Shown here: positions 1 through 52,448 of the stretch, in pieces
Numbering within the stretch: position 1 is the stretch's first letter
Layout: each line of letters starts with the position of its first letter
Origin: Candidatus Caldarchaeum subterraneum
GTDB taxonomy: Archaea; Thermoproteota; Nitrososphaeria_A; Caldarchaeales; Caldarchaeaceae
NCBI GenBank assembly: GCA_000270325.1
Contig: BA000048.1
Span: forward strand, 1,413,481-1,477,480
DNA length: 64,000 nucleotides
Reading direction: 5' to 3'
Translations under genes and position numbers: made by a program
Notes under the pieces: generated by a model
What the model was told of the DNA's origin: nothing
Seen by the model: only the letters and a program-made list of their open reading frames with translations
Databases searched by the model: none

Positions 1-1018
1 CTTCTCTGACCCAGTTTTCATGCGGCACGACTATCTCGGGTGTGTCCTCGATGCTGACGATTTTCGCCGAGGGGTTGATGAATACGCTCGCAGCCCTCAG
101 GGCGGTGGTTTTACCCGAAGCCGTCTCCCCGCAGAACCATATGCTCATCCCATGTTCGAGCATTATCCATAGATAGGCTGCTTCGAGGCTGCTCATCGTC
201 CCCCAGCTTATCAGGTCGGCTATACTCACGGGTTTCTCGGAGAATTTTCTGATGGTGAAGTTGCTGCCATGTCTGCTTACGTCGCTGCCGAAGACGATGT
301 TTATTCTGCTGCCATCTGGGAGTGAAGCGTCCACAATTGGCTTACGGAAGTTGACGGGCCTTCCTATTCTCTCCGCCAGCTTGACGACGAAAGCGTCGAG
401 CTCTTCCTGGTCTGAAAAGCTTATGTTTGTTTCGCAGCTTCCGAAGATTTTATGTTCAACGAATATGGGGCCGACGCCGTTGCATGAAATATCTTCGATA
501 TATTGGTCTCGGATGAATGCCTCAAGTGTTCCGAGATAGACTTTGTCCAGGATTACGCTGTTCCGGATTATGTCGGCGGTTGTCTGGTTGGCGGCGAGCT
601 TCTCCACAATCCCCTTCCTGTAAATCGGCTTATAGTCAAAATCCTCGAGTGTATCATCTATTTCGAGAAACATGTCGAGAAGCTCGTTGAGTAGTTTTTC
701 ATGTTCTTCGCGTGTGGTGTAGTCCATCTCGGGTGTGATGAGCCTCGCCAAGCCTTTTTCAACTATTTTGTTTATCTCCATGGGAGCCATTGTGAATGGG
801 CTTATGACGTTGTAGGACGATCTTTCGCTCGGCCTCGACTCGATGTGTATGAATAACGGGTCTCCGACTGGGTAGATGATGCTGAAGCTCCGGAGGCTGC
901 GCATTTCTCGGCTGAGTTGCTCTACATAGGAGGCTGTTTTGCCCTGAAGCCTCAGCTCCTCGATATACATTCTTAGATGAGGGTTTTCCATCAGAACTCT
1001 CGAGGGCACGCTGCTCAT
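1..1018 (-). CDS. arlI: Archaellum ATPase ArlI/FlaI, 3'-partial at window start (N-terminal 339 aa present)
   Basis: I translated the reverse complement myself: it gives MSSVPSRVLMENPHLRMYIEELRLQGKTASYVEQLSREM... continuing to ...MSIWFCGETASGKTTALRAASVFINPSAKIVSIEDTPEIVVPHENW. That is a Walker A GETASGKTT in the type II/IV secretion ATPase family. The ATG is at 1018..1016. The ORF is missing from the track because it runs off the window. Confidence 0.85.
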   Translation of the reverse strand, partial: MSSVPSRVLMENPHLRMYIEELRLQGKTASYVEQLSREMRSLRSFSIIYPVGDPLFIHIESRPSERSSYNVISPFTMAPMEINKIVEKGLARLITPEMDYTTREEHEKLLNELLDMFLEIDDTLEDFDYKPIYRKGIVEKLAANQTTADIIRNSVILDKVYLGTLEAFIRDQYIEDISCNGVGPIFVEHKIFGSCETNISFSDQEELDAFVVKLAERIGRPVNFRKPIVDASLPDGSRINIVFGSDVSRHGSNFTIRKFSEKPVSIADLISWGTMSSLEAAYLWIMLEHGMSIWFCGETASGKTTALRAASVFINPSAKIVSIEDTPEIVVPHENWVRE

Positions 1019-1023
1019 GGTTT

Positions 1024-1743
1024 CTACGCCTTGGCCTGCGAGAAAGGCAGCACCCTGATGCCGAAGACCTGGTCAACCTCGAAGGCTATGGTCAACCCGC
1101 TTTTCTCAGCGCCCTTAAGCTTCATGACCTGCAGAACTCTGACAATTCTCTCACCCATCTCCTTTACGCTGAGCACGAAATGGACATCTGATATAGAGCG
1201 TAATCTGAGGAAAAGGTCGGTGTCGAGTGCATGCGAGTGTATGCTTAGGAAAATCGTTTTGCCTTCTTCGTCAACAATGTTTCTGAGGACTGTGAAGAAG
1301 TTGAGGATGTCTGTTGTCGATGCGTTGGTGAGGAGATAGGTCATCGAGTCTATGAAGAATACGTTTTCCTTTGAACGGCTTTGGATGAAGGCTGTGACGA
1401 GTCGGAGCAGCTTGGTGTATTGCTGTGATGACCAGCTAAAGTTTCTCACATGCATCTCACCTATTTTCAGCCTTCCTGTGATGATGAAGTATGAGGGATT
1501 CCATGACAACGAGGCCATACTCTCCCTAACGGCCCTCATACTCCCCTCTGTGCTGAGCAGGTAGCAGTTGAACCCGGAGAGTAATGCTCCATAGCAGTAT
1601 TGTAGTGTCAGGACTGATTTTCCGCTGTCGTTGGGGCCTTCGATAAGGCAGAGGGCGGGTGTCTTTATATGGCCGATTTTACGGTCCAGTTCGCTGTTAA
1701 AGGCTCTGATGTATCCTTCGGTCAATTCTCCGTCACCACCCAA
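1024..1743 (-). CDS. arlH: Archaellum accessory protein ArlH/FlaH (KaiC/RecA-like ATPase)
   Basis: 239 aa with Walker A GPNDSGKS. Position between arlF and arlI matches the crenarchaeal arlX-G-F-H-I operon. Confidence 0.8.
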   Translation of the reverse strand: MGGDGELTEGYIRAFNSELDRKIGHIKTPALCLIEGPNDSGKSVLTLQYCYGALLSGFNCYLLSTEGSMRAVRESMASLSWNPSYFIITGRLKIGEMHVRNFSWSSQQYTKLLRLVTAFIQSRSKENVFFIDSMTYLLTNASTTDILNFFTVLRNIVDEEGKTIFLSIHSHALDTDLFLRLRSISDVHFVLSVKEMGERIVRVLQVMKLKGAEKSGLTIAFEVDQVFGIRVLPFSQAKA

Positions 1744-2219
1744 AACCTGGCCAAAATGGCCTGAGACGAGTTGACAGCCTCCTCAAGTGTTGCATTGATG
1801 TAGATTGTTTCCCCGATGTTCCAAACACCTTCAAGCTCGGGGCTGAGAACCATAGGGTCAAGAGCCTCATCTGACTCGCCCAGCTTCACATCAATAATCT
1901 GCCACCCCGGAGTCTCGCCGAAGTTAAGCCTGCGTATCCTACGTACTCCGTCTTCGTTAAAGTAGATGATGAATAGGTCAGCCACCTTGATGTGTTTTGA
2001 AGGGATGTCGACGGGCCCGTAGTTTTGGATGCTTAGGTATACATTGTTTCCCGAAACATTTGTGATTGTGGGTTCGAGTTTCTTTAGGGATGATCTGCGT
2101 GATTGATTCAGCTCAGCCATCGTCGCCGCCGCGTCATACACGTTCAGGAAGTATCCGAGGAATTGTAGAATTATAAGAGTGGTTATGCCAAATGACACCA
2201 GCAATCCATAGACCGACAT
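1722..2219 (-). CDS. arlF: Archaellum protein ArlF/FlaF (N-terminal TM helix plus beta-sandwich)
   Basis: 165 aa with an N-terminal hydrophobic helix. Assigned by operon position upstream of arlH. Confidence 0.55.
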   Translation of the reverse strand: MSVYGLLVSFGITTLIILQFLGYFLNVYDAAATMAELNQSRRSSLKKLEPTITNVSGNNVYLSIQNYGPVDIPSKHIKVADLFIIYFNEDGVRRIRRLNFGETPGWQIIDVKLGESDEALDPMVLSPELEGVWNIGETIYINATLEEAVNSSQAILARFWVVTEN

Positions 2220-2226
2220 TTTTCAA

Positions 2227-2715
2227 TCAACCTACCGAAAATACATAGGACGAGGAGAAGTATGGGCCGGCTATTTTCACGGTGTATTCGCCGGGGTTTA
2301 GAGGTGTCTCGAGCTGCATGGTGATCGCAAGGGTTTCACCCCATGACCAGCCGTTGTCATTCAGGGTTTCTTTTAGGATGCTGTATCTCCAGCGGTAGGG
2401 CCCATGTCCGTGCTTCATCAGGAAAAACGTATCTCTTCCCACGAGGAATATGTCGGAGGCCTCGATTTCGGCGTAGGAGATTCTCTCAGTCCCCACGTTT
2501 TTCAGCCAAAGATACACAACGCTGCGGTTGTCGCTCACATATCCCATCAGGGGCTCAACGCTCGTCAGCGCTTCTCTCTTCATTCTGCTTACCTTGGCTT
2601 GATTGGCTTGCTTCAATTCATCCACGAAGCTGAACATCGTCGAAGCATAGGCCGAGGCTGTTATGATGAGTGAGATGACGAAGATTGCTTCGGCCACTAT
2701 GTAGGCGCCTGTCAA
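2227..2715 (-). CDS. arlG: Archaellum protein ArlG/FlaG
   Basis: 162 aa with an N-terminal TM helix. Position between arlX and arlF. Confidence 0.55.
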   Translation of the reverse strand: MTGAYIVAEAIFVISLIITASAYASTMFSFVDELKQANQAKVSRMKREALTSVEPLMGYVSDNRSVVYLWLKNVGTERISYAEIEASDIFLVGRDTFFLMKHGHGPYRWRYSILKETLNDNGWSWGETLAITMQLETPLNPGEYTVKIAGPYFSSSYVFSVG

Positions 2716-3332
2716 ACCTGACGACCACCCCAGCTTTTGCCGAGAAACTTTAGGTTACCAGCTGAGGAGAGAAGCAGAAAGGTTATCGGGTTTTCACGAT
2801 CTTTGACAAGCAGTGAGAGCATGTAGAGAACTATGAGGAAGTCGTTGAAGCTTGGAGGATGCGGCGGGGCCTGTTCTATTCTTGTATCCTTCTCCATTGT
2901 AGAAATGAATTCAAGAGCCTCCTTAATCCCCTCCAGCAAATTTTTCGGAATGAGGTTGCGCCAAGCCAGCATGTTAACTAAGTTGATGAGGTTATCTCTA
3001 CCAATTATCACAACCATCAGTTCTACGGCGGCCAACGTTGTGATGAAGGAGTCAAGTTCGTTGAAGCCCTGACGCAGCACCGACTCCTTGGCCAAACCCC
3101 CCTCTTGATGCGTCTTTGTATGCTCCTCAGCCGAACTGTCTGAGGCCAGTTTTGGCCGATTTTCCTCAACAACGACATCCTCAACCGCCCCTCTCAGGTA
3201 GACAAACGGGTTCTCAGCAGCATTCATCATCTCCCTAATTTCCAGCAAAGTCTTCTCAAGGGGCTCCCGGATGCGGCGAATTTCCTCCTCAAGCTTCTTT
3301 ATCCGCTTATCCCCGGTAACATTTTCGGCCAA
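2712..3332 (-). CDS. arlX: Archaellum protein ArlX/FlaX-like (coiled-coil, crenarchaeal type)
   Basis: 206 aa. It is the first gene of the minus-strand archaellum operon, has a coiled-coil N-terminus, and overlaps arlG by 4 nt. Confidence 0.45.
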   Translation of the reverse strand: MAENVTGDKRIKKLEEEIRRIREPLEKTLLEIREMMNAAENPFVYLRGAVEDVVVEENRPKLASDSSAEEHTKTHQEGGLAKESVLRQGFNELDSFITTLAAVELMVVIIGRDNLINLVNMLAWRNLIPKNLLEGIKEALEFISTMEKDTRIEQAPPHPPSFNDFLIVLYMLSLLVKDRENPITFLLLSSAGNLKFLGKSWGGRQV

Positions 3333-3449
3333 TTTTTTTCACCTCCAACAATGACATGGTCCATTCGACCAAGAAAATATGGGTTAAGAAATAAGCTTTA
3401 CTAGAATCAGACACAAATAATACAAAAGTCCAAAAAATCTCTAACAAAC

Positions 3450-3465
3450 CTTATATTTATCCGCA
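3450..3465 (+). promoter_or_regulatory. Archaeal TATA/BRE-like element (ccttatatttatcc) about 25 bp upstream of the arlB start
   Basis: AT-rich TATA box in the 150-bp divergent intergenic region between arlX and arlB. Confidence 0.4.
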
Positions 3466-3506
3466 GACAGTTATCAGTCGCAGAAATGAAAAACCAAACA
3501 AAAATA

Positions 3507-4065
3507 ATGAAAAAACAACAACAAAGGTCTGACGGGACTAGAGACGGCCATAATATTGATAGCCTTCGTCATCGTAGCCAGCGCCTTCAGCTTCGCCGTC
3601 CTAAACCTCGGCCTCTTCACCACACAGAAAACAGGCGAAGTCATGCAGGCAGGTCTCGAGGAGACTTTGTCATCTATCGAGACAGCTGGGGCTGTTGTGG
3701 CAAAGAGCTCCAACGGAAGCATAACCGAGATCGTCATCTACATCAAGTCTTCGGTGGGTAAGGGCGAGGTTGACGTACGTTCGGGCAAGCTCGTCATCAC
3801 CTACAGAGACAAAGCCATCTTTAGGGAGAACATCTACACCAACAACTCAACAATTACAACGGTATATCAAGTGACGGGAGACGGAGACACTGTACTGGAA
3901 TACGGCGAAGTCTTCGCTGTCAAAATAGACGTAACCGCGATTTCTGGGGCTAGCCTGGCGCCCAACGATGTCTTCAGCGTCGAGATCAAGCCGCCGCAGG
4001 GTTCGTTGCTTAAGGTTGAGCGGAGGCTTCCGCCGTCTTTCGACCCCGTCATGGACCTGACTTAA
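3507..4065 (+). CDS. arlB: Archaellin ArlB/FlaB with class III signal peptide. The N-terminus is disrupted by a 1-nt frame break in an A6 tract at 3510-3515
   Basis: The 3556..4065 frame extends upstream in frame as KNNNKGLTGLETAIILIAFVIVASAFSFAVLNLGLFTTQKTG. This is the conserved archaellin prepilin-like N-terminus (KG|LTGLETAIILIAF). An in-frame TGA sits at 3508-3510. The only ATGs (3486 and 3507) are in the -1 frame, reading MKNQTKIMKKQQQR. Confidence 0.8.
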
Positions 4066-4069
4066 ACTC

Positions 4070-4100
4070 CCCCACCCCTCCCCCTATTTTTTTATACCAC
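4070..4100 (+). terminator. C-rich then oligo-T tract (cccccacccctccccctattttttta) downstream of arlB
   Basis: Archaeal intrinsic terminators are oligo-T runs, and this one sits 5-35 nt after the arlB stop. Confidence 0.3.
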
Positions 4101-4171
4101 CATTTTTTCCATAAATTATGCGACTATCATGTCGACCTATTTCACCGTTTGTATGATTTTTAGGAGGTGGT

Positions 4172-4840
4172 TTGTTGCAGGGGGATGATGTTTTGCTCGG
4201 TGCTTCTCCGGCAGCCTATGCAGAGTGGGTTGCTAGAGATTTTCAGAGGCTGAGGTCAGCGAACCACAGCGCTGTGATGAAAAAATGTGACGTGGTGTTT
4301 CTACGCGGCGACGGAGCTAAGCCAAGCCGCTACATAGTCAATGTATTGAACAAAACTTTCACGGTTGAGCTTGACGAGGGTAAGGTGGTGGACTTGATGA
4401 CTGGAAAAGATGCAGGCGAAAAACTCAGCTACGTGATTCTGGAGTATTTGCTGGGTGAGGGGGCGGCTGGGCAGGATAGCTGGCAGCCACTTGACACACT
4501 CTTAAAGACATCTGCCTACCTCTCCTACTACCAGAAAACCGTTCTCAACCCGCTTCTGAAAACCTTTGGAAACCAGGCCCTGTTGTTTGAGGAGTCTTCA
4601 CGCATGCTCGGAGGCAAGAGGGAGAAACTTGGTGGAACAGCATATTCCTTCACATTTCTACCCAAGGTAAGGCTGCTGATACAGGTTTGGTTCGGTGACG
4701 AGACCGAGATGCGTAAAACATCTATAAACGCGTCCTACAACATGTCCGCAGCCAAGTTCCTGAAACCCACTCCCCTCCTCATAGCCTTCGAAATTTTGAC
4801 AACCCTCTTAACCAAGACGATTAAGAAACAGAAAACCTAG
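4172..4840 (+). CDS. Hypothetical protein (222 aa)
   Basis: Long ORF with good codon structure and a TTG/GTG start. No motif recognised. Confidence 0.4.
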   Translation: MLQGDDVLLGASPAAYAEWVARDFQRLRSANHSAVMKKCDVVFLRGDGAKPSRYIVNVLNKTFTVELDEGKVVDLMTGKDAGEKLSYVILEYLLGEGAAGQDSWQPLDTLLKTSAYLSYYQKTVLNPLLKTFGNQALLFEESSRMLGGKREKLGGTAYSFTFLPKVRLLIQVWFGDETEMRKTSINASYNMSAAKFLKPTPLLIAFEILTTLLTKTIKKQKT

Positions 4841-5349
4841 CTCCACTCCTCATCAGCAACCCCTGACAAATGATTTACGTAACGGGCTGCTGTGAAAAAA
4901 AACTTTGAAAGAAAGTTGAGAAAAGAAAAGGCGAGGGGGTCCACCTCCGATGTGTCGCCGAGTCTAACCAGTGTTCTCTCAGCTCTGCGAGCCACAGCCC
5001 TACATACATGCAGATATGCCGCGGCTTCTGCTCCACCGGGGTAAATAAACCGTCTCAAAAGCGGGAGCCTGTTCTCCATCTCTTTCTCAAAAAGTCTGAG
5101 CTCATCCAAACAAGCCCTGACGCGGTCAAGGGGGTGATTTGGAACCGCCAAATATGAGCCGATGTGGAATAATGCTTCCTGAATCTTTTTAAGAGATTGT
5201 CTAAGCTCTTCGTCCACGGTGAGAGAGCGGGCGACGCCGACGAAGGCGGATAACTCGTCAACCGTGCCTAAAGCCTCTAAAAGCGGATGATTCTTCTTAA
5301 CCTTGCCCCGGCCCGGTAGAAAGGTTTCATCATCCTTTTTTTCGCTCAA
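4837..5349 (-). CDS. ATP:cob(I)alamin adenosyltransferase, PduO/MMAB type
   Basis: N-terminus LPGRGKVKKNHPLLEALGTVDELSAFVGVAR matches the PduO-type motif (GDxGxT... RVEAYGTVDELN). Confidence 0.7.
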   Translation of the reverse strand: MSEKKDDETFLPGRGKVKKNHPLLEALGTVDELSAFVGVARSLTVDEELRQSLKKIQEALFHIGSYLAVPNHPLDRVRACLDELRLFEKEMENRLPLLRRFIYPGGAEAAAYLHVCRAVARRAERTLVRLGDTSEVDPLAFSFLNFLSKFFFTAARYVNHLSGVADEEWS

Positions 5350-6473
5350 CTTTTCTGAACCATCTTCCTTATCTTCTCAAAGCTGATGGCTGGCGTCGGC
5401 TTCTCGGGAACAATTCCCTGCGGCCTTATGATTAAGACTATTATCAGCGCGATGCCGAACAGCAGTCTGTCGAGCCAGACGATGCTGAAGGGGATAAACG
5501 GTTCGAGCAGATAGTTGTAGGTGAGTATTGCTTGGCGTAGAATGACGAAGACAAGTGTTCCAAGCAGTACTCCTCTGTTGTTCCCCGCTCCGCCGATAAT
5601 CACCATGACCCAGGGCCAGAAAGTCCATGTGAAACGGTCGTAGTTGTTGGCTATAACCGCAACCGAGTTAAAGGCCCAGAGAGCACCAGCGACAGCCGCC
5701 ATCATAGACGAGACTACCAGAATTTTCTGCTTAACCCGTACAACATCTATGCCCAGAACCTCGGCCGCCATCTCACTGTCCCTAACAGCCCTCAGCACAC
5801 GGCCCGCCGGAGAATAGGTGACGGACCTTACATAGAGGAAGAAAAGCACGGCCACGGTGAGCATGACTAAGGTGGCTGCATAAGGTCGTAGTCCTCCGAG
5901 CCAGCCGTATGGGTCGGGGACAGCGACACCCAACGTGCCGCCAACCAGGGTTCTGTCAAGATAGCCTATTTGGCGGAGAAACTCTCCCATAGCCAGCAGC
6001 GTCATCGCGAGGTAATCCTCCCTCAGCCTAATGCTGGGGTAAGACGCTATGAAGCCGAGTCCTGCGCCGACGATGGCCGCCAACCCAACCATGGCAACCA
6101 GCAGAGCTATCGAGAGCACGGGGTCGTTCACGAGAACACGTCTAACACAGTCTATCACAACAGCGTTGTCCTCGATGTAGTCAATACTATCCATGAGCTT
6201 TGGCTTGACCTGTACAAGGGTGCTGAGACACTCCGCCAGCACAGGGTTGTCCTGCACCGCTCTGTAGCCCGCGAAGAGGTTGAGCTGACTCGCCAATATC
6301 CGTCCCGGAACCGCGCCCACAACAAACGCACCCCCCGCGACGGCGAGTACTTTTCCGAAGTTAGGTATCCCTGTGAAGCCATACTCGAAGTTGAGGCTGA
6401 CGTTAACCATCAAGTAGATAGCAACATAGCCGAGGACATTCAATAGGAAGATGATAAGCTGCTCGTCTATCAC
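5346..6473 (-). CDS. livM: Branched-chain amino acid ABC transporter permease (LivM-like)
   Basis: 375 aa polytopic membrane protein. Adjacent to a LivH-like permease and divergent from the SBP and two ATPases. Confidence 0.75.
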   Translation of the reverse strand: MIDEQLIIFLLNVLGYVAIYLMVNVSLNFEYGFTGIPNFGKVLAVAGGAFVVGAVPGRILASQLNLFAGYRAVQDNPVLAECLSTLVQVKPKLMDSIDYIEDNAVVIDCVRRVLVNDPVLSIALLVAMVGLAAIVGAGLGFIASYPSIRLREDYLAMTLLAMGEFLRQIGYLDRTLVGGTLGVAVPDPYGWLGGLRPYAATLVMLTVAVLFFLYVRSVTYSPAGRVLRAVRDSEMAAEVLGIDVVRVKQKILVVSSMMAAVAGALWAFNSVAVIANNYDRFTWTFWPWVMVIIGGAGNNRGVLLGTLVFVILRQAILTYNYLLEPFIPFSIVWLDRLLFGIALIIVLIIRPQGIVPEKPTPAISFEKIRKMVQKS

Positions 6474-13270: not shown

Positions 13271-13344
13271 GGGCCGGTAGATCAGTCTGGAAGATCGCCC
13301 GCTTGGCGTGCGGGAGGTCCTGGGTTCAAATCCCAGCCGGTCCA
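13271..13344 (+). tRNA. tRNA-Ala (anticodon GGC), no encoded CCA
   Basis: Cloverleaf GGGCCGG/CCGGTCC acceptor with the G3:U70 Ala identity pair, anticodon loop CTTGGCGTG, T-loop GGTTCAAATCC. A TATA-like ctttatagaaa lies about 30 bp upstream. Confidence 0.9.
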
Positions 13345-13377
13345 CTTGTTTATGGATAAGGTTTAACAGGGATACTG

Positions 13378-22804: not shown

Positions 22805-23413
22805 TTATGCTCCGAATAGCTTTTTAGCTTTTCCCAGCAGACTCTCCTGCTCTTCTGACAAAGGCTTGTCCCTCGTCTTACCAGAGGACTCGCCTAAGAT
22901 ATGCATAAAGTCAAAGGTGCTTAATGCGTGGAAAGTGCTTTCGAGAAGTTTCGCCCGATGCACTCCTATGCTCACGGGAAGGGAGACAACCCTCCCCTCT
23001 TTCGATATCTGGAAAACCTTGAACTTGAGAGAGGAGATTCTTCGTGTTTTGGCATAATCAACGGGGTCCACCACAAGGGCTACAGCCTTGCTGAACATTG
23101 CTTGGTATCGCTTCTGGGTGTCGATGTCCGTTGGCGAAAGAAAAACATCAAGCCCCGGATGCGAATGATACCATCCAACTATGTAGAGGTTTTTATCTGA
23201 TTTGGAGAGTTCTTCTGCAACCTTTGCCATAACCATCTCGTCAAGCTGCACGTAAGCAGGTGTACCGTACTGCTCACCCGTGACAGCATCCCATATCTCG
23301 AGAACCTTTCCTGCCGACTTGCCGACCAGCAAGCCCGCCACTTCACGCTGGAGGCTTGACGCAGCGTGTTTAACCACCTTCGCCAAGGCCAGCGGATAGA
23401 TTCTTACACGCAT
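22805..23413 (-). CDS. JAMM/MPN+ metalloprotease, Rpn11-like deubiquitinase
   Basis: Complete JAMM motif: upstream Glu (REVAGLLVG) and HSHPGLDVFLSPTD (HxHx7Sx2D). Confidence 0.85.
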   Translation of the reverse strand: MRVRIYPLALAKVVKHAASSLQREVAGLLVGKSAGKVLEIWDAVTGEQYGTPAYVQLDEMVMAKVAEELSKSDKNLYIVGWYHSHPGLDVFLSPTDIDTQKRYQAMFSKAVALVVDPVDYAKTRRISSLKFKVFQISKEGRVVSLPVSIGVHRAKLLESTFHALSTFDFMHILGESSGKTRDKPLSEEQESLLGKAKKLFGA

Positions 23414-23517
23414 TAGCAGACCATCGTCTAGGACGGTAATAAAAGTGACGCTCCGAGAAACGTTGTTGAATATTACCGAGGTATTTTGTTCACTGGCTCG
23501 AGGTTTGACTTCTGGTT

Positions 23518-23535
23518 AATCCTTATATATGCTGC
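23518..23535 (+). promoter_or_regulatory. TATA-like element (aatccttatatatgc) about 22 bp upstream of the Ub gene
   Basis: Sits in the 140-bp divergent intergenic region between the JAMM and Ub genes. It shares the ccttatat core with the arlB promoter element. Confidence 0.35.
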
Positions 23536-23553
23536 GGTTGTGAGGAGTCCAGA

Positions 23554-23817
23554 ATGAAGATTAAGATTGTTCCCGCTGTCGGAGGAGGTTCACCCTTGGA
23601 GCTCGAGGTTGCTCCAAACGCCACCGTCGGCGCAGTTCGGACGAAGGTTTGCGCTATGAAGAAACTGCCACCCGACACCACCCGCCTAACCTACAAGGGT
23701 AGAGCCCTCAAAGACACCGAAACTCTTGAGAGTCTCGGCGTGGCTGATGGAGACAAATTCGTACTCATCACGCGGACGGTGGGTGGATGTGGAGAGCCAA
23801 TACGTCGAGCTGCCTGA
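23554..23817 (+). CDS. Ubiquitin homolog (pro-form: beta-grasp ending in GlyGly plus a 9-aa C-terminal extension CGEPIRRAA)
   Basis: LPPDTTRLTYKGRALKDTETLESLGVADGDKFVLITRTVGG aligns with ubiquitin [41 protein letters not shown]. The N-terminal MKIKIV strand resembles MQIFVK. Confidence 0.85.
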   Translation: MKIKIVPAVGGGSPLELEVAPNATVGAVRTKVCAMKKLPPDTTRLTYKGRALKDTETLESLGVADGDKFVLITRTVGGCGEPIRRAA

Positions 23818-24295
23818 AAACGCGTGGTACAGGCGGCTGGCTCTCGAGTATGCTTTGATTCAGGAGAATGAACCCACCTTCACACCCGTCGAAAACGACC
23901 TAACTCATTACGAGGGAGTCATAGTCGGCTCAGGCGAATATGAGGGAGGCTTTTTCAGAGTAGAAATAATCATTCCACGGTCTTACCCATATTTCCCACC
24001 CGATGTTATTTGGCACACACGGATATGGCATCCAAACTTCTCTGACAGCGTCCCCGCAAGAGTCTGTGAATCAATTTTCAAAGACCACTGGTCACCCTCT
24101 CTCCGCATAGTGGCCGTAATCGAGTCTTTGAGAAACCTTTTGACAAACCCCAACCCCGAGGACCCGCTCAACCCCGTCGCAGCATTTGAGTACAAGAACA
24201 GGCCCGACCTCTTCTACAGCCGTGTTAGGCAGTTTGTCGAAACATATGCTACGCCTGAGCAGGCTTTCGGAAAGAAGCGTTGGAAGGGTTTGTAG
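23726..24295 (+). CDS. Ubiquitin-conjugating enzyme E2 (UBC fold). Start is uncertain: ATG 23726/23747 or GTG 23783/23789; it overlaps the Ub 3' end
   Basis: UBC hallmark HPN motif with the downstream catalytic Cys (RIWHPNFSDSVPARVCESIF). The N-terminal helix is RRLALEYALIQENEP. Confidence 0.8.
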   Translation: MRVSAWLMETNSYSSRGRWVDVESQYVELPENAWYRRLALEYALIQENEPTFTPVENDLTHYEGVIVGSGEYEGGFFRVEIIIPRSYPYFPPDVIWHTRIWHPNFSDSVPARVCESIFKDHWSPSLRIVAVIESLRNLLTNPNPEDPLNPVAAFEYKNRPDLFYSRVRQFVETYATPEQAFGKKRWKGL

Positions 24296-25479
24296 TGTTG
24301 GGTGAGGTTGACGCGCTGTCGAGGTACGATCGCCAGCTACGGCTCGAGGGATGGGACCAGAACAAGCTCCTGTCGGGTAGGGTGATTGTAGCAGGTGTGG
24401 GGGCGCTTGGATGCGAGGTTGCGAAAAACCTCGCTCTTATGGGAGTTGGCGAGCTCCTCCTCATAGACAACGACTATGTCGAGCTTTCCAACCTCAGCAG
24501 ACAGATGCTCTACACCGACCAAGACATAGGAAGACCAAAAGCCTCTACGGCTGAGAAAAAAATATCCTTGATGAATCCTCTCGTGAAGGCGAAAGGCCTG
24601 CACACAGATGTCCGAAAAATCCCCGAGGAAACCTTCGCCGAGGCCGATGTCATAGTCTCAGCCGTCGACAACTGGCCGACAAGAAGATGGATGAACTCGA
24701 TGGCGGTGCATGTCGGAACTCCGCTTGTCGACGTAGCCACCGACGGCTACTATGGAAATGTTCAAACAGTGATACCCGGTGTCACCAGCTGCCTGGAATG
24801 CCATGCAGAGGCCCTTATTCCCTCGGACATACAGGCCTCGGAATGCTCTCTACGCCGCCGCACCCCAAACGACCTCGTCAAAGACCTTAGTGAACGAGGC
24901 ATATCAATAAACTTGTCCGATGCCGAGACTCTCTTCCAACACAACATCAAAACAGTCTACGACATCAAGTTCGCGCCGCAGACAGTGTTGGATCAAATGG
25001 ATAAGTCACTCAGAGAACAAGTCATCCAGCTCCGTTCACTGCTTAACCCCAAGATGCCCGCTCTACAGAGCATATCAGCAACCGTCTCAGGCCTTGCCTC
25101 GTTCGAAGTAGTCCGTTTACTTCATAAAGGTTCTCTGGGCAGGTCGTTGAACGGTATGATGGTTTTCGACGGGCTGAGGGGGAGGCTTTCGCGTATAAAG
25201 CTGGAGAGAAACGTGAACTGCCACGTATGCGGCTACAGCGAGGACAAGCCTGTGCAGATAAATGTTGCGCCTAACGAAACTATCGCCGACCTAAGAGAGA
25301 GAATATCCAACCTTCTAATGTTTCCTGACACCCGTTTACAACACGGCGCAAAACTATTGGATGACACGGCTGATATTACATCGGCAGGCATATGTGATGG
25401 AGACATACTTTATATCCATTCAAGCAGGAGAGCAACACCGGTGGCTGTGAAGGTGAAGCTGATTGAGGCTGGTGATTAG
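24280..25479 (+). CDS. Ubiquitin-activating enzyme E1-like (ThiF/MoeB/UBA family) with C-terminal ubiquitin-fold domain. Likely start is the GTG at 24295 overlapping the E2 stop (taGTG)
   Basis: YDRQLRLEGWDQNKL plus the Rossmann motif VAGVGALGCEVAKNL. A Cys-containing crossover region (CLECH...C) and a beta-grasp-like C-terminus. Confidence 0.85.
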   Translation: MEGFVVLGEVDALSRYDRQLRLEGWDQNKLLSGRVIVAGVGALGCEVAKNLALMGVGELLLIDNDYVELSNLSRQMLYTDQDIGRPKASTAEKKISLMNPLVKAKGLHTDVRKIPEETFAEADVIVSAVDNWPTRRWMNSMAVHVGTPLVDVATDGYYGNVQTVIPGVTSCLECHAEALIPSDIQASECSLRRRTPNDLVKDLSERGISINLSDAETLFQHNIKTVYDIKFAPQTVLDQMDKSLREQVIQLRSLLNPKMPALQSISATVSGLASFEVVRLLHKGSLGRSLNGMMVFDGLRGRLSRIKLERNVNCHVCGYSEDKPVQINVAPNETIADLRERISNLLMFPDTRLQHGAKLLDDTADITSAGICDGDILYIHSSRRATPVAVKVKLIEAGD

Positions 25480-25690
25480 AGAGGTCAACGCAGGGTTTTG
25501 GAACCCCTTTGAGGAGCCGAAGCCAAGGCCGAAGCAAGAGAACTGTGTAATTTGTGGCCTGGAGATGGGGAATGAAAAAACATATTCATGTCCTCACTGT
25601 GGAGCAGTTGGTCACATGTCGTGTTTCGACGACTGGCTGGTGGTGAAGCAGACGTGCCCGCTTTGCCGCAGGCCGCTGGTAGAGATGTGA
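25463..25690 (+). CDS. Small RING-type zinc-finger protein (putative E3). Likely start is the GTG at 25472 overlapping the E1 stop
   Basis: CVICx10CPHCx4Hx2Cx10CPLC, a C4HC3 cross-brace spacing, in a protein of about 72 aa. Confidence 0.8.
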   Translation: MRLVIREVNAGFWNPFEEPKPRPKQENCVICGLEMGNEKTYSCPHCGAVGHMSCFDDWLVVKQTCPLCRRPLVEM

Positions 25691-25691
25691 G

Positions 25692-26003
25692 ATGAGCGGA
25701 GAAGAAAACGAGAAAGTAATCGAGCTGGACTATTTGGAGACGCCGAAAGGAGCAGTAGCAAGGTTCGAGGGTGTCCGGCAGCTGGCTGAGGTTCTTGCAG
25801 AGGTTATCGAGGAAATTGACAAGATGAAAGAGCGGCTGCAAACACTGTCCGAAAGCAGTCAGACTCCCGAGAACCTCGAGCGCAGGCTGAAATACATAGA
25901 GGACCAGCTGATTGTGCTTAGCGACGACGTGAGAGAGATATTAAACGCCCTCGGGGAGTTGTCTGCGACGGTTGCGCAGATAAAAAAGGCTTTGAAGCTA
26001 TGA
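25692..26003 (+). CDS. Small helical/coiled-coil protein, last gene of the Ub operon
   Basis: The ATG sits 1 nt after the RING gene stop (tgagATG). 103 aa, acidic and helical. Confidence 0.4.
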   Translation: MSGEENEKVIELDYLETPKGAVARFEGVRQLAEVLAEVIEEIDKMKERLQTLSESSQTPENLERRLKYIEDQLIVLSDDVREILNALGELSATVAQIKKALKL

Positions 26004-26906
26004 TGTCAGGAAGGCTCGTCTCATCTCTGTGATTAGCTCGTTAAGTTCGGTTCGACGTCTCTCCATCTCAGCTATCTCTCTGGCCAGCGTCTCCTTGTAG
26101 GCTTCCAGCTTCTTAACCTCCTCCCTCAACTTGTTGGAAGTCTCTATCAAAGTCTCCGCTTCTGCCTTGCTTTTCTCCAGAGCTGCTAGACGCTCCTCAA
26201 GCTCCCTCTCCCTGCGTATCATCCTCTCCATCCTTATCTCCCGCAGCTTAAACAGCTTATCCATCTCTCTTCCAAAGTTTTCAAGCTTTTTCTGAGCCTC
26301 CTCAAATGATGTGAGGTAGCGTTCCGACAGGATGTTTATCTCTGTCTCGAGCGCTTCTTTCTTGGTGATAAGCTGCTTCAGCGTCTCCTGCGCCTCCGCT
26401 ATCTGCTTCTCCTTTGACTCAAGCTCCTCACGCCACTTCAGAACCTCCTCGCGAAGCCTAGACAAGCTCTCCCTCTCCTGCATAAGCCTCTGAACTTCCT
26501 TAACCAGCTCAGCACGCTGGTTCGACAAAAGGTCAGCCGTCTCATGCAAGCTCTCACTAAGCGACTTGACCTCCTCCGTTAACCCCCTATACGAGTCCAG
26601 CGCCTGGTCCAGAAGATACGCCTTCTCGACAACAGACTGCAGGGATGACAGAGTTCTCTGAGGAGATGAAACCTGCTCAAGAACCTGGCGGACATCCTCC
26701 TTGAGCTTGGCCAAGGCTTCTTCGAGCAGGCTTATTCTTTCTTCAAGCTTTTCTATGACCTGTACCCTTATGGCCGCGACCTCTTTACGGAGGTCGGCTA
26801 TGCTGTCTGACTTTCTCGGCAGCAGACCCATGGCTGAATTTGGGGTCTGCATGATTATAAACCCTACTTGGTAGTGTAAGATAGAGAATGGCCAAGTATT
26901 GTTCAA
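25998..26906 (-). CDS. Long coiled-coil protein, hypothetical
   Basis: 302 aa, essentially all heptad-rich E/K/R/L sequence. Convergent with the Ub operon. Confidence 0.4.
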   Translation of the reverse strand: MNNTWPFSILHYQVGFIIMQTPNSAMGLLPRKSDSIADLRKEVAAIRVQVIEKLEERISLLEEALAKLKEDVRQVLEQVSSPQRTLSSLQSVVEKAYLLDQALDSYRGLTEEVKSLSESLHETADLLSNQRAELVKEVQRLMQERESLSRLREEVLKWREELESKEKQIAEAQETLKQLITKKEALETEINILSERYLTSFEEAQKKLENFGREMDKLFKLREIRMERMIRRERELEERLAALEKSKAEAETLIETSNKLREEVKKLEAYKETLAREIAEMERRRTELNELITEMRRAFLTS

Positions 26907-27651
26907 AGGTTTTCGTGGGGCATGTTTTTATAAGGTGGGGCATCTGGGTTTAATCGGCATGGTTGTGTCTGAGAGACGGTTGCTCGTTCGGTTTTTTCAG
27001 ATAGGCTCGGTGCTGGCTTTGGCGGGCAGCATACATGTGCTGACCCTTCTCCTTCCATGGTACACTGTAAGGGCTGACAGCGTTTCAACCTCTGTTTTGA
27101 GCGGCTACCTGCTACCCGAGACACTGGCCCTCTCAGTGGCCGGAGGAGTTTTGGCGGGTCTGTCTTTGTTGGTGACATCCTTTAGCCAGCGTCCCATGGC
27201 GGTGAGAACCGTGCTAGTTGTCTTATCGCTTTTAGGAGGGGTGCTAGCCATGGTTTCTCCGCTCTATCTCGGGCTTGTCAGGGTTCCGGCTCTAAGCGTG
27301 GCTGGCGAGCCGGGCATAGGGTTCTTCATAGCACTTTTCTCCGCCATAGTTATTCTTGCGTTAGGAGGAGTGGCTCTTATGACACGGCCGCGTGTGGTCG
27401 AGATTCCATATCAAGGCTATGGTGGCGTGAGCGGGGCTACAGTGTCGTCCACACAGCCGATGGAGACAACCTCTTTTGAAGTTGCCGGTGAGGTTGAGGA
27501 GGGAGTAGTCTGCCCCATTTGCTACACATCCGTGGAAGCTGAAAATGCTGTTAGATGCTCCTCATGCGGTGTAGTTTTTCACTCTGGATGCCTTGACGCA
27601 TATGTAAACATAAACGGTACTTGCCCAAACTGTGGAAGAGCCGTTGTCTAG
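26899..27651 (+). CDS. Polytopic membrane protein with C-terminal cytosolic C4HC3 RING/PHD-like zinc finger
   Basis: Four to five hydrophobic helices, then CPICx11CSSCx4Hx2Cx9CPNC. The spacing is the same as in the small RING protein at 25463. Confidence 0.6.
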   Translation: MFKGFRGACFYKVGHLGLIGMVVSERRLLVRFFQIGSVLALAGSIHVLTLLLPWYTVRADSVSTSVLSGYLLPETLALSVAGGVLAGLSLLVTSFSQRPMAVRTVLVVLSLLGGVLAMVSPLYLGLVRVPALSVAGEPGIGFFIALFSAIVILALGGVALMTRPRVVEIPYQGYGGVSGATVSSTQPMETTSFEVAGEVEEGVVCPICYTSVEAENAVRCSSCGVVFHSGCLDAYVNINGTCPNCGRAVV

Positions 27652-39488: not shown

Positions 39489-39895
39489 TTATTTCCAAAC
39501 CCAGTAGCTGCTCGTCAGGTAGTTGACAGCCATGCCAGCCAACACGCCCACGATGTTGGAAACCAGATAAAATATCCCCAGGAAATCGGTTAGGAGATAT
39601 AGGATGCCTAGCGAAGTTATGGTTCCCGCTATTCTTGAGCCGTGGAATTTGAGAGGCGTCCGGGTATGCCTGTGGGCCCTGCTCTGTCTCGGAAGGTCCA
39701 GTACTCGTTGAGGAAAAAGTTGTTGAGAATAGAGATTTCGAGGCTTATAACGGCGGCTATGAGATACAGCCTCTCGCCAAAGACATAGTTTGTGAGCAGG
39801 AAGAGCGCTACTGTGTTTACGACGAGGCCGACGCCGCCCACCACGCTAAACTTGATGAGCCTCGGGATATCTAAGCTCCTTAGAAAACTTCTCAT
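39489..39895 (-). pseudogene. GtrA-family membrane protein disrupted by a frameshift
   Basis: The N-terminal half (39895..39629) has 2 TMs and ends ...NEYWTFRDRAGP. The -1 frame then continues LKFHGSRIAGTITSLGILYLLTDFLGIFYLVSNIVGVLAGMAVNYLTSSYWVWK* to 39489. This holds the conserved GtrA C-terminal NYxxxxxWVW. Confidence 0.55.
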
Positions 39896-41998: not shown

Positions 41999-42614
41999 GG
42001 TTGGGAAAAAGGGGATAAGAGCACTCGGCGTCGCCGAGAGTTTTAGGAAGCGGCTGGGCTCACGCGCTGTTCTCGCAGGCGTCGTGATGAGGTCGGACCT
42101 GCTGGTGGACGGGTTTGTTTTCGGCGCCTGCACCGTTGGTGGCATGGACTCCACCGAGGCAGTTCTAGAGATGTGGCAGCGTCTCGGCCGCATGGACATC
42201 AACGTGGTCCTGTTGAGCGGAAGCGTAATCAGCTGGTTTAACGTCGTCGACCTCAACAAGCTTCATCAAACAATAGGCACTCCCTTGATATGCCTCAGCT
42301 ACCGCGATTCACGTGGTCTTGAGGAGGTTTTTAGGAGAAGGTTTCCGAGTGACTGGGAGCAGCGTCTTAGTGTTCACCTTCGCAACGGCGAAAGAAGCGA
42401 TGTAGTTCTGAAGACAGGCTACAAAGTCTATGTGCGATGCTTTGGTCTGCTGCCCACCGATGCCAAAACAGTTCTCGACAAGTTCACTGTCGACGGACGC
42501 TTCCCCGAGCCCGTTAGACTGGCTAAGCTTCTTGCGAGAGGAGCGTTAAACTATCTTGAGCCTTTTCTCGGCTCTGAATCCGGGTTCGCTGACGTAGGCC
42601 GGGAAACCACCTGA
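41982..42614 (+). CDS. DUF99/UPF0215 family protein
   Basis: About 210 aa with an archaeal-conserved fold. Confidence 0.4.
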   Translation: MQSRVRVGKKGIRALGVAESFRKRLGSRAVLAGVVMRSDLLVDGFVFGACTVGGMDSTEAVLEMWQRLGRMDINVVLLSGSVISWFNVVDLNKLHQTIGTPLICLSYRDSRGLEEVFRRRFPSDWEQRLSVHLRNGERSDVVLKTGYKVYVRCFGLLPTDAKTVLDKFTVDGRFPEPVRLAKLLARGALNYLEPFLGSESGFADVGRETT

Positions 42615-44644: not shown

Positions 44645-45096
44645 AGAGCAGAACCGTTCTAACGACAGGAGCCTTCGACATCCTTCATCTCGGACACATG
44701 CTCATGCTAAAGGATGCCAAAAAACTCGCGGGCCCACGTGGGAAACTAGTCGTGGTCGTGGCCTCCGATAAAACAGTTAGACGCAATAAAGGACGCGCAC
44801 CCATATTCGGTGCACGTGAGAGGAAAAAGATGCTCCAATTCCTCAAGCCGGTTGACGAAGTGTTGATCGGCTATGACCCGGTCTCTTTTGAAAAAATTTT
44901 GAGGAAAGTTAGGCCGGATATCGTCGCTTTCGGCTATGACCAGCGGAAAATACGCGACCAGTTTCTGAGATTCTGCCGGGAGAGAAAGGTTAAGGTAAGG
45001 GTTGTGACGCTTAGGAAGCACAACGTCAACCCTGTTAGCAGCAGCGATGTTGTGAAACGGGTTCTAAGCCTCGGAAAGCGCGTAAGACGTCTTTAA
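44638..45096 (+). CDS. ribL: FAD synthase RibL / cytidylyltransferase-family nucleotidyltransferase
   Basis: TGAFDILHLGH (HxGH) motif. 152 aa. Confidence 0.7.
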   Translation: MVKSRTVLTTGAFDILHLGHMLMLKDAKKLAGPRGKLVVVVASDKTVRRNKGRAPIFGARERKKMLQFLKPVDEVLIGYDPVSFEKILRKVRPDIVAFGYDQRKIRDQFLRFCRERKVKVRVVTLRKHNVNPVSSSDVVKRVLSLGKRVRRL

Positions 45097-45188
45097 CCCT
45101 TCATAGAATATTTTTGGCTGTAGTGTCGCCGAGATTTTGACAAGCGAGCCGTCGACTAGTCCCAGTTTTTCCCTTAGATTGTGTTGGG

Positions 45189-45788
45189 CTATGAGTCTGC
45201 GACGGAGTTGTCGTATAGTGTGCGTTCGGGGAAAATCATGTAGGCTGGCTCTGTGTCGTTTACGGTTACCCTTACTGCCTTGACGTCACCGTATGTTCTT
45301 TTCTCGTCTCTAAACCCGTGTATCTCTATGTCAGCGTATTTCTGGAGAAGCATCTTGTTTTCTATCGAGTCTTTCGAGAGCAGTGTGATGTTCAAGGTTC
45401 CGGGATAGGGGATGAAGCCGAGTTTCTCCTGCATCTGCTTGACATAGTTGGGGAGAGACATGTAGTAAACGCCCTCACCGTATCCCGTGAAAACTCTGCC
45501 CTCAAGGACAACCTTGACGGGCCTCTCGAAAATCATTTTCAGTGTAAGGTATAGGTCCAGCAGTCTTGCAACACCTTTTTGCGTAAGCTTGACGTAGCTT
45601 GTTCGGCCCACAACCCGGCGCTCAATCAACCCCTCCTTCTCAAGAAGTATCAAAAGCCTCGAGGCTGACTGCTGACTGGTTGAGAACTGTCGAGAAAGGA
45701 TTGGGGTGGTGATTTTGAGACTAGAGGTTATAGCGCCTGCTTCGGCGAGGTATATCAACACTCTTTCGCGGAGAGAGAGGTTTGCCAC
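45189..45788 (-). CDS. ribK: CTP-dependent riboflavin kinase with N-terminal wHTH (MJ0056 family)
   Basis: N-terminal HTH plus a C-terminal TGYGEG...PYPGTLN kinase core. Confidence 0.7.
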   Translation of the reverse strand: MANLSLRERVLIYLAEAGAITSSLKITTPILSRQFSTSQQSASRLLILLEKEGLIERRVVGRTSYVKLTQKGVARLLDLYLTLKMIFERPVKVVLEGRVFTGYGEGVYYMSLPNYVKQMQEKLGFIPYPGTLNITLLSKDSIENKMLLQKYADIEIHGFRDEKRTYGDVKAVRVTVNDTEPAYMIFPERTLYDNSVADS

Positions 45789-50076: not shown

Positions 50077-50733
50077 ATGTACCCGCAGACAAGAACCTTC
50101 TTCCCCGGATACATAAAAACAGGAATTTTCGGCTACAGGTTCGCGGACTCTAAAAACATAGTGTCGATGGTTGAGGAGAATGAGGTCCCGCCGCGTAAGG
50201 TCGACGAGACAATAGCTCGTTATGGTGTGGAGAAGGTTCACAGGGTTGAGACACCACGGGGGGTTGAATATTTTCTATTCAGGTTTCGCAACTTTAGGCT
50301 GATAAGGTATCTGCTTAACTGGGGTAGGATGGCTTCTCTCTTCCCCGCTCACATAACAACTGCATGCTGTTCGGTCGAGTTTGCTGCGACACATTCGCCG
50401 AGATACGACCCTGAGCGTTTTGGCTGGCTACCTGCTACGGGAAGCCTTCGCCAGAGCGATGTGCTTGTTGTGGAGGGAACGGTTACCTCCAAGATGGCTC
50501 AGAGACTTAGACTAGTCTATGACCAGATGCCTGAGCCGAAGTGGGTGATCGCTATGGGCGCATGCGCCATAAGCGGCGGATTATACGCTAAAGACAGCTA
50601 CAACGTCATACAGGGGATAGACGATATTCTCCCAGTTGATGTCTATGTTCCTGGATGTCCTCCAAACCCCTCGACGTTTTTCCAGGCCATTTTGTTGCTG
50701 AGGGAGAAAATCCTGTATGGGAGGGTTGCCTGA
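50077..50733 (+). CDS. nuoB: NADH-quinone oxidoreductase subunit B (N-terminal extension or uncertain start)
   Basis: LNWGRMASLFPAHITTACCSVEF with later GCPP cluster-N2 cysteines. Confidence 0.85.
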   Translation: MYPQTRTFFPGYIKTGIFGYRFADSKNIVSMVEENEVPPRKVDETIARYGVEKVHRVETPRGVEYFLFRFRNFRLIRYLLNWGRMASLFPAHITTACCSVEFAATHSPRYDPERFGWLPATGSLRQSDVLVVEGTVTSKMAQRLRLVYDQMPEPKWVIAMGACAISGGLYAKDSYNVIQGIDDILPVDVYVPGCPPNPSTFFQAILLLREKILYGRVA

Positions 50734-51218
50734 TGTCTGAAACCGTGCTTACCGTTGTCCAGGAGCTTGAGAACAAGTTTGGGAAGGCTTTGCTCGAGAA
50801 GGCTGTGGACACTCGTAAGCTTGTGAAAATCGTTGTTGATGCAGCGTCGTTGGTTGCTGTCGCCCGTTTTCTAAGGGACAATTATGGGCTCGACCATGTT
50901 AAGGCGGTCACAGGCGTGGATTTGAGCAGGCTTTTGAAGAAAGAGGACAAGATAGAGATCATTTATCATCTCGGCTCATACACGAGGCCCGAGCTGGCGA
51001 CGGCGGATATTGCGCTGTCGACCAAGCTGGATAAAAAGTCGCCGCGGATGCCTAGCCTCATCGATGTATGGCCTAGTGTAGAGTTTCATGAACGAGAGGT
51101 TTATGAAATGTTTGGAGTAGTTTTCGAGGGACATCCAGACTTGAGGAGGCTACTGTTGCCGGAGTACTGGAGCGATATACCGCCGATGCTGAAGGAGTAT
51201 GAGCCGCCTGGGAGGTGA
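50733..51218 (+). CDS. nuoC: NADH-quinone oxidoreductase subunit C (30 kDa)
   Basis: The ATG overlaps the nuoB stop (tgATG). Conserved EREVYEMFGVVFEGHPDLRRLLLP. Confidence 0.8.
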   Translation: MSETVLTVVQELENKFGKALLEKAVDTRKLVKIVVDAASLVAVARFLRDNYGLDHVKAVTGVDLSRLLKKEDKIEIIYHLGSYTRPELATADIALSTKLDKKSPRMPSLIDVWPSVEFHEREVYEMFGVVFEGHPDLRRLLLPEYWSDIPPMLKEYEPPGR

Positions 51219-51224
51219 AACAGG

Positions 51225-52448
51225 TTGACCGTGACGGAGCATAAGGAGATTAGAAAAATCGAGGTGTATGATGCCGGCGAAGGCGCTCTCAAGATGAGCT
51301 ACGGCCCCCAGCACCCCGGCACAGGACACTTCAGGCTAATCATCACCGTACTCGGCGACACAGTTCTCGAGGCTGAACCGGACCCGGGGTTCGTCCACAG
51401 AGGAGAGGAGAAGCTGGCGGAGTACAAGACATGGATTACAAACATACCTCATCTTGAGAGGCCCGTTATCCTCGACTCCGCGGGCATTCAGTATCCATAT
51501 GTCTTGGCTGTGGAGAAGCTGATGGGTATAGAAGCTCCCGAGAGGGCTAAATATCTACGCGTCATCATGGCGGAGCTGCAGCGTATCGCCAGCCACCTCT
51601 ACTGGTTCGCCCTCTACGGTGTCTTCTTAGGCAACTCAACCATGTTTCTATGGTGTTTCGGCGACCGAGAATATCTTGTTGACCTCACCTCGCTGATAGG
51701 CGGCCAACGCATAACCCACAGCTACTTTGAGCCCGGCGGCGTGCGCAACGACATGCCGTCAAGGGTTCCGCAAGACCTGTTGAAAGAGTTCAATCGTTAC
51801 TACCGGATGGTGATGGGGAGGGATTTGCCCGGCGACGCTGACCAGCTCCGCAAATACATCACATACGTCTGTGAATGTTTCGACAAGCGGCTTGACGACT
51901 ACTGGGACCTCTTCTTCAACAACGAGCTCTTCATATCAAGGACAAGGAACGTGGGCATTCTCAAGCCAGAGGATGCCATTAAGCTGGGAGTTGTTGGAAC
52001 AACTCTCAGAGCATCTGGAATAAAGTTTGACAATAGGGTAAACAACCCATACGACGCCTACAGCCAGCTCAAGTTCGAGATACCGATAGGGGAGCGAGGC
52101 GACTGCTATGACCGAGCCATCGTGGGCTTCAAGGAGATGAGAGAGAGCTGCAGAATCATCTCGCAAGCGGCCGAGATGATGCCCGACGGCCCCGTGAAGG
52201 TTAAGCAGCATCCGATTAACATCAGGGTGCCCGCGGGGGAGGCTGTGGCGAGGACAGAGGCTGCGCGCGGCGAGATGATGTACTATATTAGGAGCGAGGG
52301 AGGGGATAAGCCCTACCGCGTGAAAATAAGCACACCATCATTCCGACTAATACCTGCCATAAAGTATCTGCTCAGGGGGGAGGAGATAGCCAACATCCCG
52401 CCGATATACTGGTCTCTCAACTACTGGCCAGTTGAGGCTGACCGCTGA
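51225..52448 (+). CDS. nuoD: NADH-quinone oxidoreductase subunit D (49 kDa)
   Basis: 407 aa, NiFe-hydrogenase large-subunit-like, starting MSYGPQHPGTGHFRL. Confidence 0.9.
   Translation: MTVTEHKEIRKIEVYDAGEGALKMSYGPQHPGTGHFRLIITVLGDTVLEAEPDPGFVHRGEEKLAEYKTWITNIPHLERPVILDSAGIQYPYVLAVEKLMGIEAPERAKYLRVIMAELQRIASHLYWFALYGVFLGNSTMFLWCFGDREYLVDLTSLIGGQRITHSYFEPGGVRNDMPSRVPQDLLKEFNRYYRMVMGRDLPGDADQLRKYITYVCECFDKRLDDYWDLFFNNELFISRTRNVGILKPEDAIKLGVVGTTLRASGIKFDNRVNNPYDAYSQLKFEIPIGERGDCYDRAIVGFKEMRESCRIISQAAEMMPDGPVKVKQHPINIRVPAGEAVARTEAARGEMMYYIRSEGGDKPYRVKISTPSFRLIPAIKYLLRGEEIANIPPIYWSLNYWPVEADR

Follow-up and report, generated by a model that had tools for sequence, protein, structure and literature searches.

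The archaellum locus

The window, meaning the whole 64-kb stretch of DNA that was analysed, begins within an archaellum gene cluster. The archaellin gene itself, arlB, lies on the forward strand from ATG 3486 to a stop codon at 4063-4065, and a surplus base at 3517/3518 breaks its frame. The other archaellum genes are on the reverse strand. The one nearest to arlB is a gene in the position of arlX (2712-3332), which encodes 206 amino acids from TTG 3332 (206-215 in relatives) and has no family match. It is followed by an intact arlG/arlF-like stator gene (2227-2715), whose product has an archaellin-fold N-terminus (PF01917, E = 3.3e-8) and weak matches to NF052591 (ArlG) and NF052590 (ArlF), and by an intact gene for 165 amino acids in the arlF/arlG position (1722-2219), again with no family match. 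Next come an intact arlH, encoding a KaiC-like ATPase (1024-1743; NF004723 FlaH, E = 1.6e-69, above cutoff), and the N-terminal part of arlI, the gene for the T2SSE ATPase (2-1072). The latter runs off the window; in relatives it encodes 553 amino acids and is followed by arlJ (T2SSF). Apart from arlB, every archaellum gene in the window is intact and matches exactly its counterpart in the metagenome-assembled genome HR03, and thus the cluster shows no sign of decay.

Directly downstream of arlB, on the same strand, there is a gene for a DUF3786 protein (4172-4840), whose position is kept in all Caldarchaeum loci examined. Rfam and tRNA scans gave no match near the arlB locus; the sole RNA gene found in the window by ARAGORN and Rfam is a tRNA-Ala (GGC) at 13271-13345.

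How does arlB read as written? ATG 3486 and ATG 3507 both open an ORF of 91 amino acids (3486-3761), which translates as MKNQTKIMKKQQQRSDG... The archaellin frame (3511-4065) is one base on from this ORF. It reads stop, KTKQK, stop, stop, KNNNKGLTGLETAIILIAF..., the double stop being TAA 3505-3507 and TGA 3508-3510, and its translation after the double stop runs as KNNNKGLTGLETAIILIAFVIVASAF... up to the stop at 4063-4065. The earliest canonical start in the archaellin frame is TTG 3556. The original prediction had been that this frame contains TGA 3508-3510 and no canonical start before TTG 3556, that the only ATGs (3486 and 3507) lie in a different frame, and that 3510-3515 is a run of six A residues; reading and translating the window bears out all three. 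In the window no ORF extends unbroken from a start codon across the signal peptide, the frame being broken at 3517/3518; all other assemblies have such an ORF.

A candidate archaeal TATA box, TTATATTTA, can be read at 3451-3459 on the forward strand, approximately 27-35 nt upstream of ATG 3486. If this element is used, the arlB mRNA would be leaderless or nearly so, a suggestion that comes from the sequence only. No Shine-Dalgarno (SD)-like motif was found in the window before ATG 3486, ATG 3507, or TTG 3556.

Identity of the repaired protein

When the frame is restored, the translation matches PF01917 (Arch_flagellin) over positions 1-161 of the 162 in the model (E = 7e-30; 104.9 bits, cutoff 29.5), and TIGR02537, the archaellin/type IV pilin N-terminal domain, with 30.7 bits (cutoff 20). 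These matches indicate that the gene is real and that it is disrupted as written. The repaired protein has the features of a class III signal peptide: a short basic leader, Gly at -1, and a hydrophobic N-terminus. The KG motif at the cleavage site, followed by LTGLETAIILIAF, is kept in 19 orthologs; in the window it is present in the DNA and out of frame with the ATG. Nine solved archaellin chains are matched by the repaired protein, the closest being 7txi_A ('Probable flagellin 1', E = 6.7e-31) and 9i5h_C. The genomic neighbours are also those of an archaellin gene, with arlH, arlI, and stator arlF/G genes in the window and arlJ (T2SSF) seen in relatives.

The true product is thus predicted to be an archaellin with a class III signal peptide, MKNQTKIMKKHNKG followed by LTGLETAIILIAF... 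It would be cleaved after the Gly by a prepilin-type peptidase (ArlK/PibD) and assembled via the adjacent machinery of ArlX-position, ArlG, ArlF, ArlH, ArlI, and ArlJ proteins.

Position of the lesion in orthologs and same-population assemblies

Homologs of the repaired protein number 2763, and the best are proteins of 191-193 amino acids from Candidatus Caldarchaeum (Aigarchaeota/Caldarchaeales). Intact orthologs of 192 amino acids (P0001-P0009) are 90-99% identical to it, and the closest (P0001, 99%) comes from 'archaeon HR03'. Their leaders are MKNQTKIMKKHNKG in HR03, MKNKTKRMKKQNKG in P0003, which is found on 35 contigs including one of 1.5 Mb, and MKKNTKIMKKANKA. Every ortholog is one unbroken ORF from an upstream ATG, and the distant ones begin with MK..TK.MKK. 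An arrangement shared among orthologs, with a non-ATG start, had been put forward as one way in which the window could be normal; the comparison finds an upstream ATG in frame in every case.

The original prediction placed the lesion inside the run of six A residues, and here the comparison points elsewhere. In a DNA alignment of the gene starts, all seven orthologous loci have ATGAAAAAAC, which includes the A6 run, is in frame, and encodes Met-Lys-Lys. The tract (3510-3515, forward strand, Lys-Lys) is invariant in 8/8 aligned sequences, namely the window and the seven orthologs, and the variable site is elsewhere. Over 220 aligned bases, the sole difference between the window and HR03 is one extra A, the window reading AAAAAAC-ACAACAAAGG against AAAAAACAACAACAAAGG in HR03. 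The lesion is therefore AA in place of a single A (CAC to CAAC) at 3517-3518 on the forward strand, where near-identical assemblies all have a single A; dropping one A gives MKNQTKIMKKHNKGLTGLE... The alternative repair, in which an A is removed from the A6 run, leaves two mismatches to HR03, so that the parsimonious event is A to AA one base past the run. The earlier idea that loss of one A from the run yields a class III leader holds in part: the resulting leader, MKNQTKIMKNNNKG (MKNNNKG), would in principle be functional, whereas the ancestral form is MKNQTKIMKKHNKG (MKKHNKG).

Is the extra A seen elsewhere in the same population? The whole contig of HR03 (GCA_002898595.1) aligns with window positions 485-5643 over 5159 columns with no mismatches and two one-base gaps, which are the A at 3517 and a T7 versus T6 difference at 3333-3339. 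Further contigs were retrieved from the Logan assemblies via the neighbouring DUF3786 and ArlG-like proteins, and came from runs DRR101361 to DRR101366 and from DRR000358. Those from DRR101362, DRR101363, and DRR101366 span the site, and all have CAC and an intact 192-aa ArlB. The four same-population assemblies that cover the site (the HR03 genome and these three runs) are otherwise identical or nearly identical to the window, agree with each other, and encode ArlB as MKNQTKIMKKHNKG followed by LTGLETAI. The contig collection held no record of the exact 91-aa ORF or of the exact 169-aa product of TTG 3556, and exact-pattern scans of genome and metagenome contigs matched neither allele, nor the sequence just outside the window. 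The window is the only sequence with either insertion (at 3517/3518, or the T7 at 3333-3339).

The intergenic region between arlB and the arlX-position gene shows variation of its own. Between 3407 and 3606, inside this region or next to it, short-read contigs break off, both those of the Illumina runs DRR101361-66 and those of the older DRR000358, and six SNPs set one strain (contig L021) apart from 3408 to 3470. Small differences between strains seem to be concentrated around the divergent archaellum promoters. The start of a DRR000358 contig at 3523 was considered as a sign of read heterogeneity and rejected, because a k=31 graph with a simple two-allele bubble at 3517 would break elsewhere. 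Contig L018 (DRR000358_520), from that old run, has an extra base of its own beside an A8 run, relative to window position 4894, and 16 mismatches in 300 nt against window 5859-6161. Its divergence may mean that the DRR000358 data include a second strain or that the contig is chimeric.

Other single-base indels in the window

The extra A in arlB is one of at least four private one-base indels in the window, three of which break conserved genes, and the nearest relatives are intact at all four sites. The indel closest to arlB is a run of seven T at 3333-3339 (A7 on the coding strand, which is the reverse strand). Five assemblies, HR03 and four Logan contigs, have six. In the arlX-position gene, the run separates an SD-like GGAGGTG from TTG 3332, or would fall in codons 7-8 if translation begins at ATG 3357; gene callers disagree on this protein (206/207 versus 214/215 amino acids). 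The change may be harmless, giving a spacer of 7 nt rather than 6 nt between the SD-like motif and the start.

The second broken gene encodes a GtrA-family membrane protein (39489-39895, reverse strand), which is split by the absence of one base at about 39652-39655. Its first half is an ORF of 88 amino acids (39629-39895) that matches positions 1-56 of 117 in PF04138 with 52.4 bits, and the other half (LKFHGSRIAGTITSLG..., ending in WVWK and a stop) is in a different frame (39489-39653). When the halves are joined by one added base, the match rises to 93.7 bits over positions 1-117 of 117, and the repaired protein of 135 amino acids is identical at 134/135 positions to the intact P0216 (ERZ1669417 NODE_42).

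The third is the gene for a CTP-dependent riboflavin kinase with wHTH and DUF120 domains (45064-45788, reverse strand), from which one base is missing at 45195/45196. The main ORF (45189-45788) matches positions 1-96 of 121 in PF01982 (99.1 bits), and the remainder (LIAQHNLREKLGLVDGSLVKI..., ending in SEA and a stop) is in a different frame at 45064-45195. One base added at 45195/6 extends the match to positions 1-120 of 121 (129.7 bits), and the repaired protein of 241 amino acids is identical at 239 positions to the intact P0121, which was found on 30 contigs. For both this gene and the GtrA gene, the lost base was deduced from protein alignments with relatives. Riboflavin kinase makes FMN and is presumably essential; a viable cell lacking the last 42 residues of this enzyme is implausible.

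These frameshifts were discovered by Pfam scans of small ORFs beside unexplained gaps, partial domain matches being the sign of a broken gene. The partial matches overturned an earlier view of the window as globally clean, which had rested on its dense 64-kb ORF map and on the absence of indels over 21 kb in comparison with contig L009, and which had made the two indels near arlB look like a cluster specific to that locus. Two further gaps gave a different outcome. The 491-bp gap at 50733-51225 had been taken for a broken gene, but an intact ORF of 163 amino acids lies there in the NuoC position, and the gap at 42259-42546 showed no continuation in any frame.

Composition and provenance of the window

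The window has a G+C content of about 51% and differs along its length in how closely it matches other assemblies. Logan contigs L015 and L017 show no substitutions against the window out to 6428. By contrast, window 17663-38694 has 94 substitutions (approximately 0.45%) and no indels relative to the Illumina-derived contig L009, and 17663-39111 as a whole has about 0.45% substitutions and no coding indels relative to Illumina contigs. Three other window proteins had no record in the contig collection, and the indel rate was therefore measurable only over 1-6428 and 17663-39111. This mosaic of strain and quality suggests a composite of fosmids from different strains and of different sequencing methods.

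At approximately 22805-27651, the window carries a eukaryote-like ubiquitin operon encoding a JAB/MPN deubiquitinase, a ubiquitin-like protein, an E2 (UQ_con), an E1 (ThiF), and small RING-finger proteins. We take this to be the Ub/E2/E1/RING/JAB operon known from the Ca. Caldiarchaeum subterraneum genome.

The published composite genome of Ca. Caldiarchaeum subterraneum was put together from 62 fosmid sequences, twelve of them obtained by Sanger sequencing (PMC3082918). The remaining fosmids were sequenced as pools in four 454 GS20 runs, followed by PCR gap closure and manual joins, and the reads are deposited as DRP000160 (PMC3082918). The subsurface geothermal stream that yielded the 'Aigarchaeota' (C. 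subterraneum) genome of Nunoura et al. also supplied the mat for a set of bioreactors, and it is from these bioreactors that the HR metagenome-assembled genomes and runs DRR101361-67 derive (PMC5877337). The old run DRR000358 has a Logan contig with the arlB locus as well. The window is probably a part of the C. subterraneum composite genome.

Origin of the frameshift

Has the frame of arlB been lost in the cell or in the record? The original prediction left open a sequencing error, an inactivating or phase-variable slip, and non-canonical initiation. It is the first of these that the comparison favours: the indel is private to the window, the orthologs are intact, and the same record holds more private indels that break conserved genes, one of them presumably essential. 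The arlB frameshift is very probably a base-calling or assembly error in an ordinary conserved archaellin gene. Private frameshifts in unrelated genes cannot be accounted for by selection on motility, whereas sequencing error covers all four indels. Pyrosequencing miscalls run lengths. According to the proposed mechanism, one spurious A would have been called at 3517/3518, right after the A6-C context; incomplete extension on the A6 run could have added signal to the next A flow, turning A into AA. In the Candidatus Caldarchaeum population, arlB would then be a normal functional archaellin gene.

The position of the two indels near arlB speaks against an artefact. They lie within 185 bp of each other, at the 5' ends of divergent archaellum genes, and the probability of their co-location by chance is estimated at approximately 1-2%, based on about 30 runs of at least 6 bases in the 27.5 kb that were compared. 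This could point to a local biological cause, or else to thin coverage at this spot or to contigs joined by hand. The same pair of indels supports the view that the extra A was real in the sequenced molecule, either as a natural non-motile variant in the mat or as a mutation fixed in the fosmid clone in E. coli, for example by selection against leaky expression of a membrane-inserting archaellin. On this view that strain or clone would have lost arlB to pseudogenisation very recently. The micro-diversity of the intergenic strain sequences (the six SNPs of L021) and the contig ends of DRR101361-66 and DRR000358 in the same region are consistent with it, as is the fact that loss of motility is a common adaptation. 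However, the CAAC allele is missing from all four other same-population assemblies that cover the site, the rest of the archaellum cluster is free of secondary lesions, the T7 variant may have no effect at all, and motility does not explain the private frameshifts in the GtrA and riboflavin kinase genes; a real mutation is on balance unlikely. A more elaborate version would have CAAC as genuine in a mat subpopulation sampled by one fosmid, with archaellin synthesis either off or made leaky by +1 or mRNA slippage on the neighbouring A6 run, and with the A7 changing the distance from SD-like motif to start in the divergent accessory-gene operon, so that the two indels act together as a two-hit motility switch. 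This is more doubtful still.

It might also be asked whether the cell reads through the break. If tRNA-Lys slipped by +1 on AAA-AAA-C, or if one A of the A6 run were skipped during transcription, such recoding would result in low or regulated archaellin synthesis and might serve as a programmed or phase-variable switch. The A6 run does separate the ATGs from the archaellin frame, a +1 slip or an mRNA shorter by one A would give a class III signal peptide that is plausible, and programmed frameshifting at an A-rich heptamer has a precedent in a crenarchaeon (fucA1 of Saccharolobus solfataricus). Yet the two-frame arrangement is not conserved, every ortholog having a single frame with the A6 run in it, and six A residues are short for efficient transcriptional slippage. 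A downstream RNA structure that could stimulate frameshifting was sought by folding 3486-3600 and is excluded by the result (minimum free energy -16.6 kcal/mol, z = 0.41; 133 of 200 shuffled sequences fold equally well or better), and no slow codon follows the slip site. Nor does the locus behave as a phase-variable contingency locus: the length of the tract is constant among strains, and the indel is outside the tract and occurs only in the window. The inactivating or phase-variable slip of the original prediction thus finds no counterpart elsewhere in the population, and recoding is highly improbable.

Initiation at TTG 3556, giving 169 amino acids, or at a non-standard codon between 3511 and 3555, would bypass the break altogether. 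No canonical start precedes TTG 3556 in the archaellin frame, and the equivalent TTG was picked by the gene caller in L021, though the long ORF is intact there. A protein begun at this codon would lack the basic leader, the Gly of the cleavage site, and the first 10 residues (LTGLETAIIL) of the invariant hydrophobic N-terminus, a region that all orthologs and solved archaellins keep. With no SD-like motif before the TTG and with an upstream ATG in frame in all orthologs, none of which is so arranged, non-canonical initiation can be given almost no credence.

Consequences for annotation

Read as a sequencing or assembly error, the record is no evidence for a non-motile Caldarchaeum lineage, for unusual initiation, or for recoding of archaellin; were the frameshift real, it would represent ordinary recent pseudogenisation. 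Annotation should treat arlB as an intact gene or mark it as carrying a probable sequencing error, and the same correction is needed for the GtrA-family and riboflavin kinase genes. If the window comes from the 2011 composite reference genome, comparisons of gene content will score too few genes as intact in those 454-derived parts that have such indels.

Comparison with known systems

Programmed -1 frameshifting takes place at an A-rich heptamer in the fucA1 gene of Saccharolobus solfataricus. The window resembles this case in having an A-rich tract where two overlapping frames of an archaeal gene meet. It differs in that a shift of +1, not -1, would be needed, and in that the arrangement is unconserved and lacks a supporting structure, the tract being in frame in relatives.

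There is also a likeness to homopolymer miscalls of the 454 GS20. The events are single-base changes in run length (T6 to T7, A to AA beside A6, and what are probably CC to C and AA to A), they are private to one record, they break conserved ORFs, and they are patchy along a composite assembly. On the other side, three of the four events are in runs of only one or two bases, and A1 to A2 is not the classic miscall of a long homopolymer; that this platform was used for the stretch in the window is something we infer from PMC3082918.

A further parallel is with archaellin ArlB (FlaB) itself. In the window, unlike in other ArlB genes, leader and mature domain are in separate frames, whereas near-identical assemblies encode unbroken 192-aa orthologs, and arlB is transcribed divergently from its accessory genes. 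In all else the repaired gene is of the crenarchaeal/thaumarchaeal type, with a full-length PF01917 match and a basic leader ending in K-G and followed by LTGLETAIILIAFVIVA. It adjoins arlG/F-like genes, arlH, and arlI (relatives have arlJ next), and in the alignment with 7txi_A the RRRG and IVGIEAAIVLIAFVIVA of the solved chain fall opposite the KG and LTGLETAIILIAFVIVA of the window.
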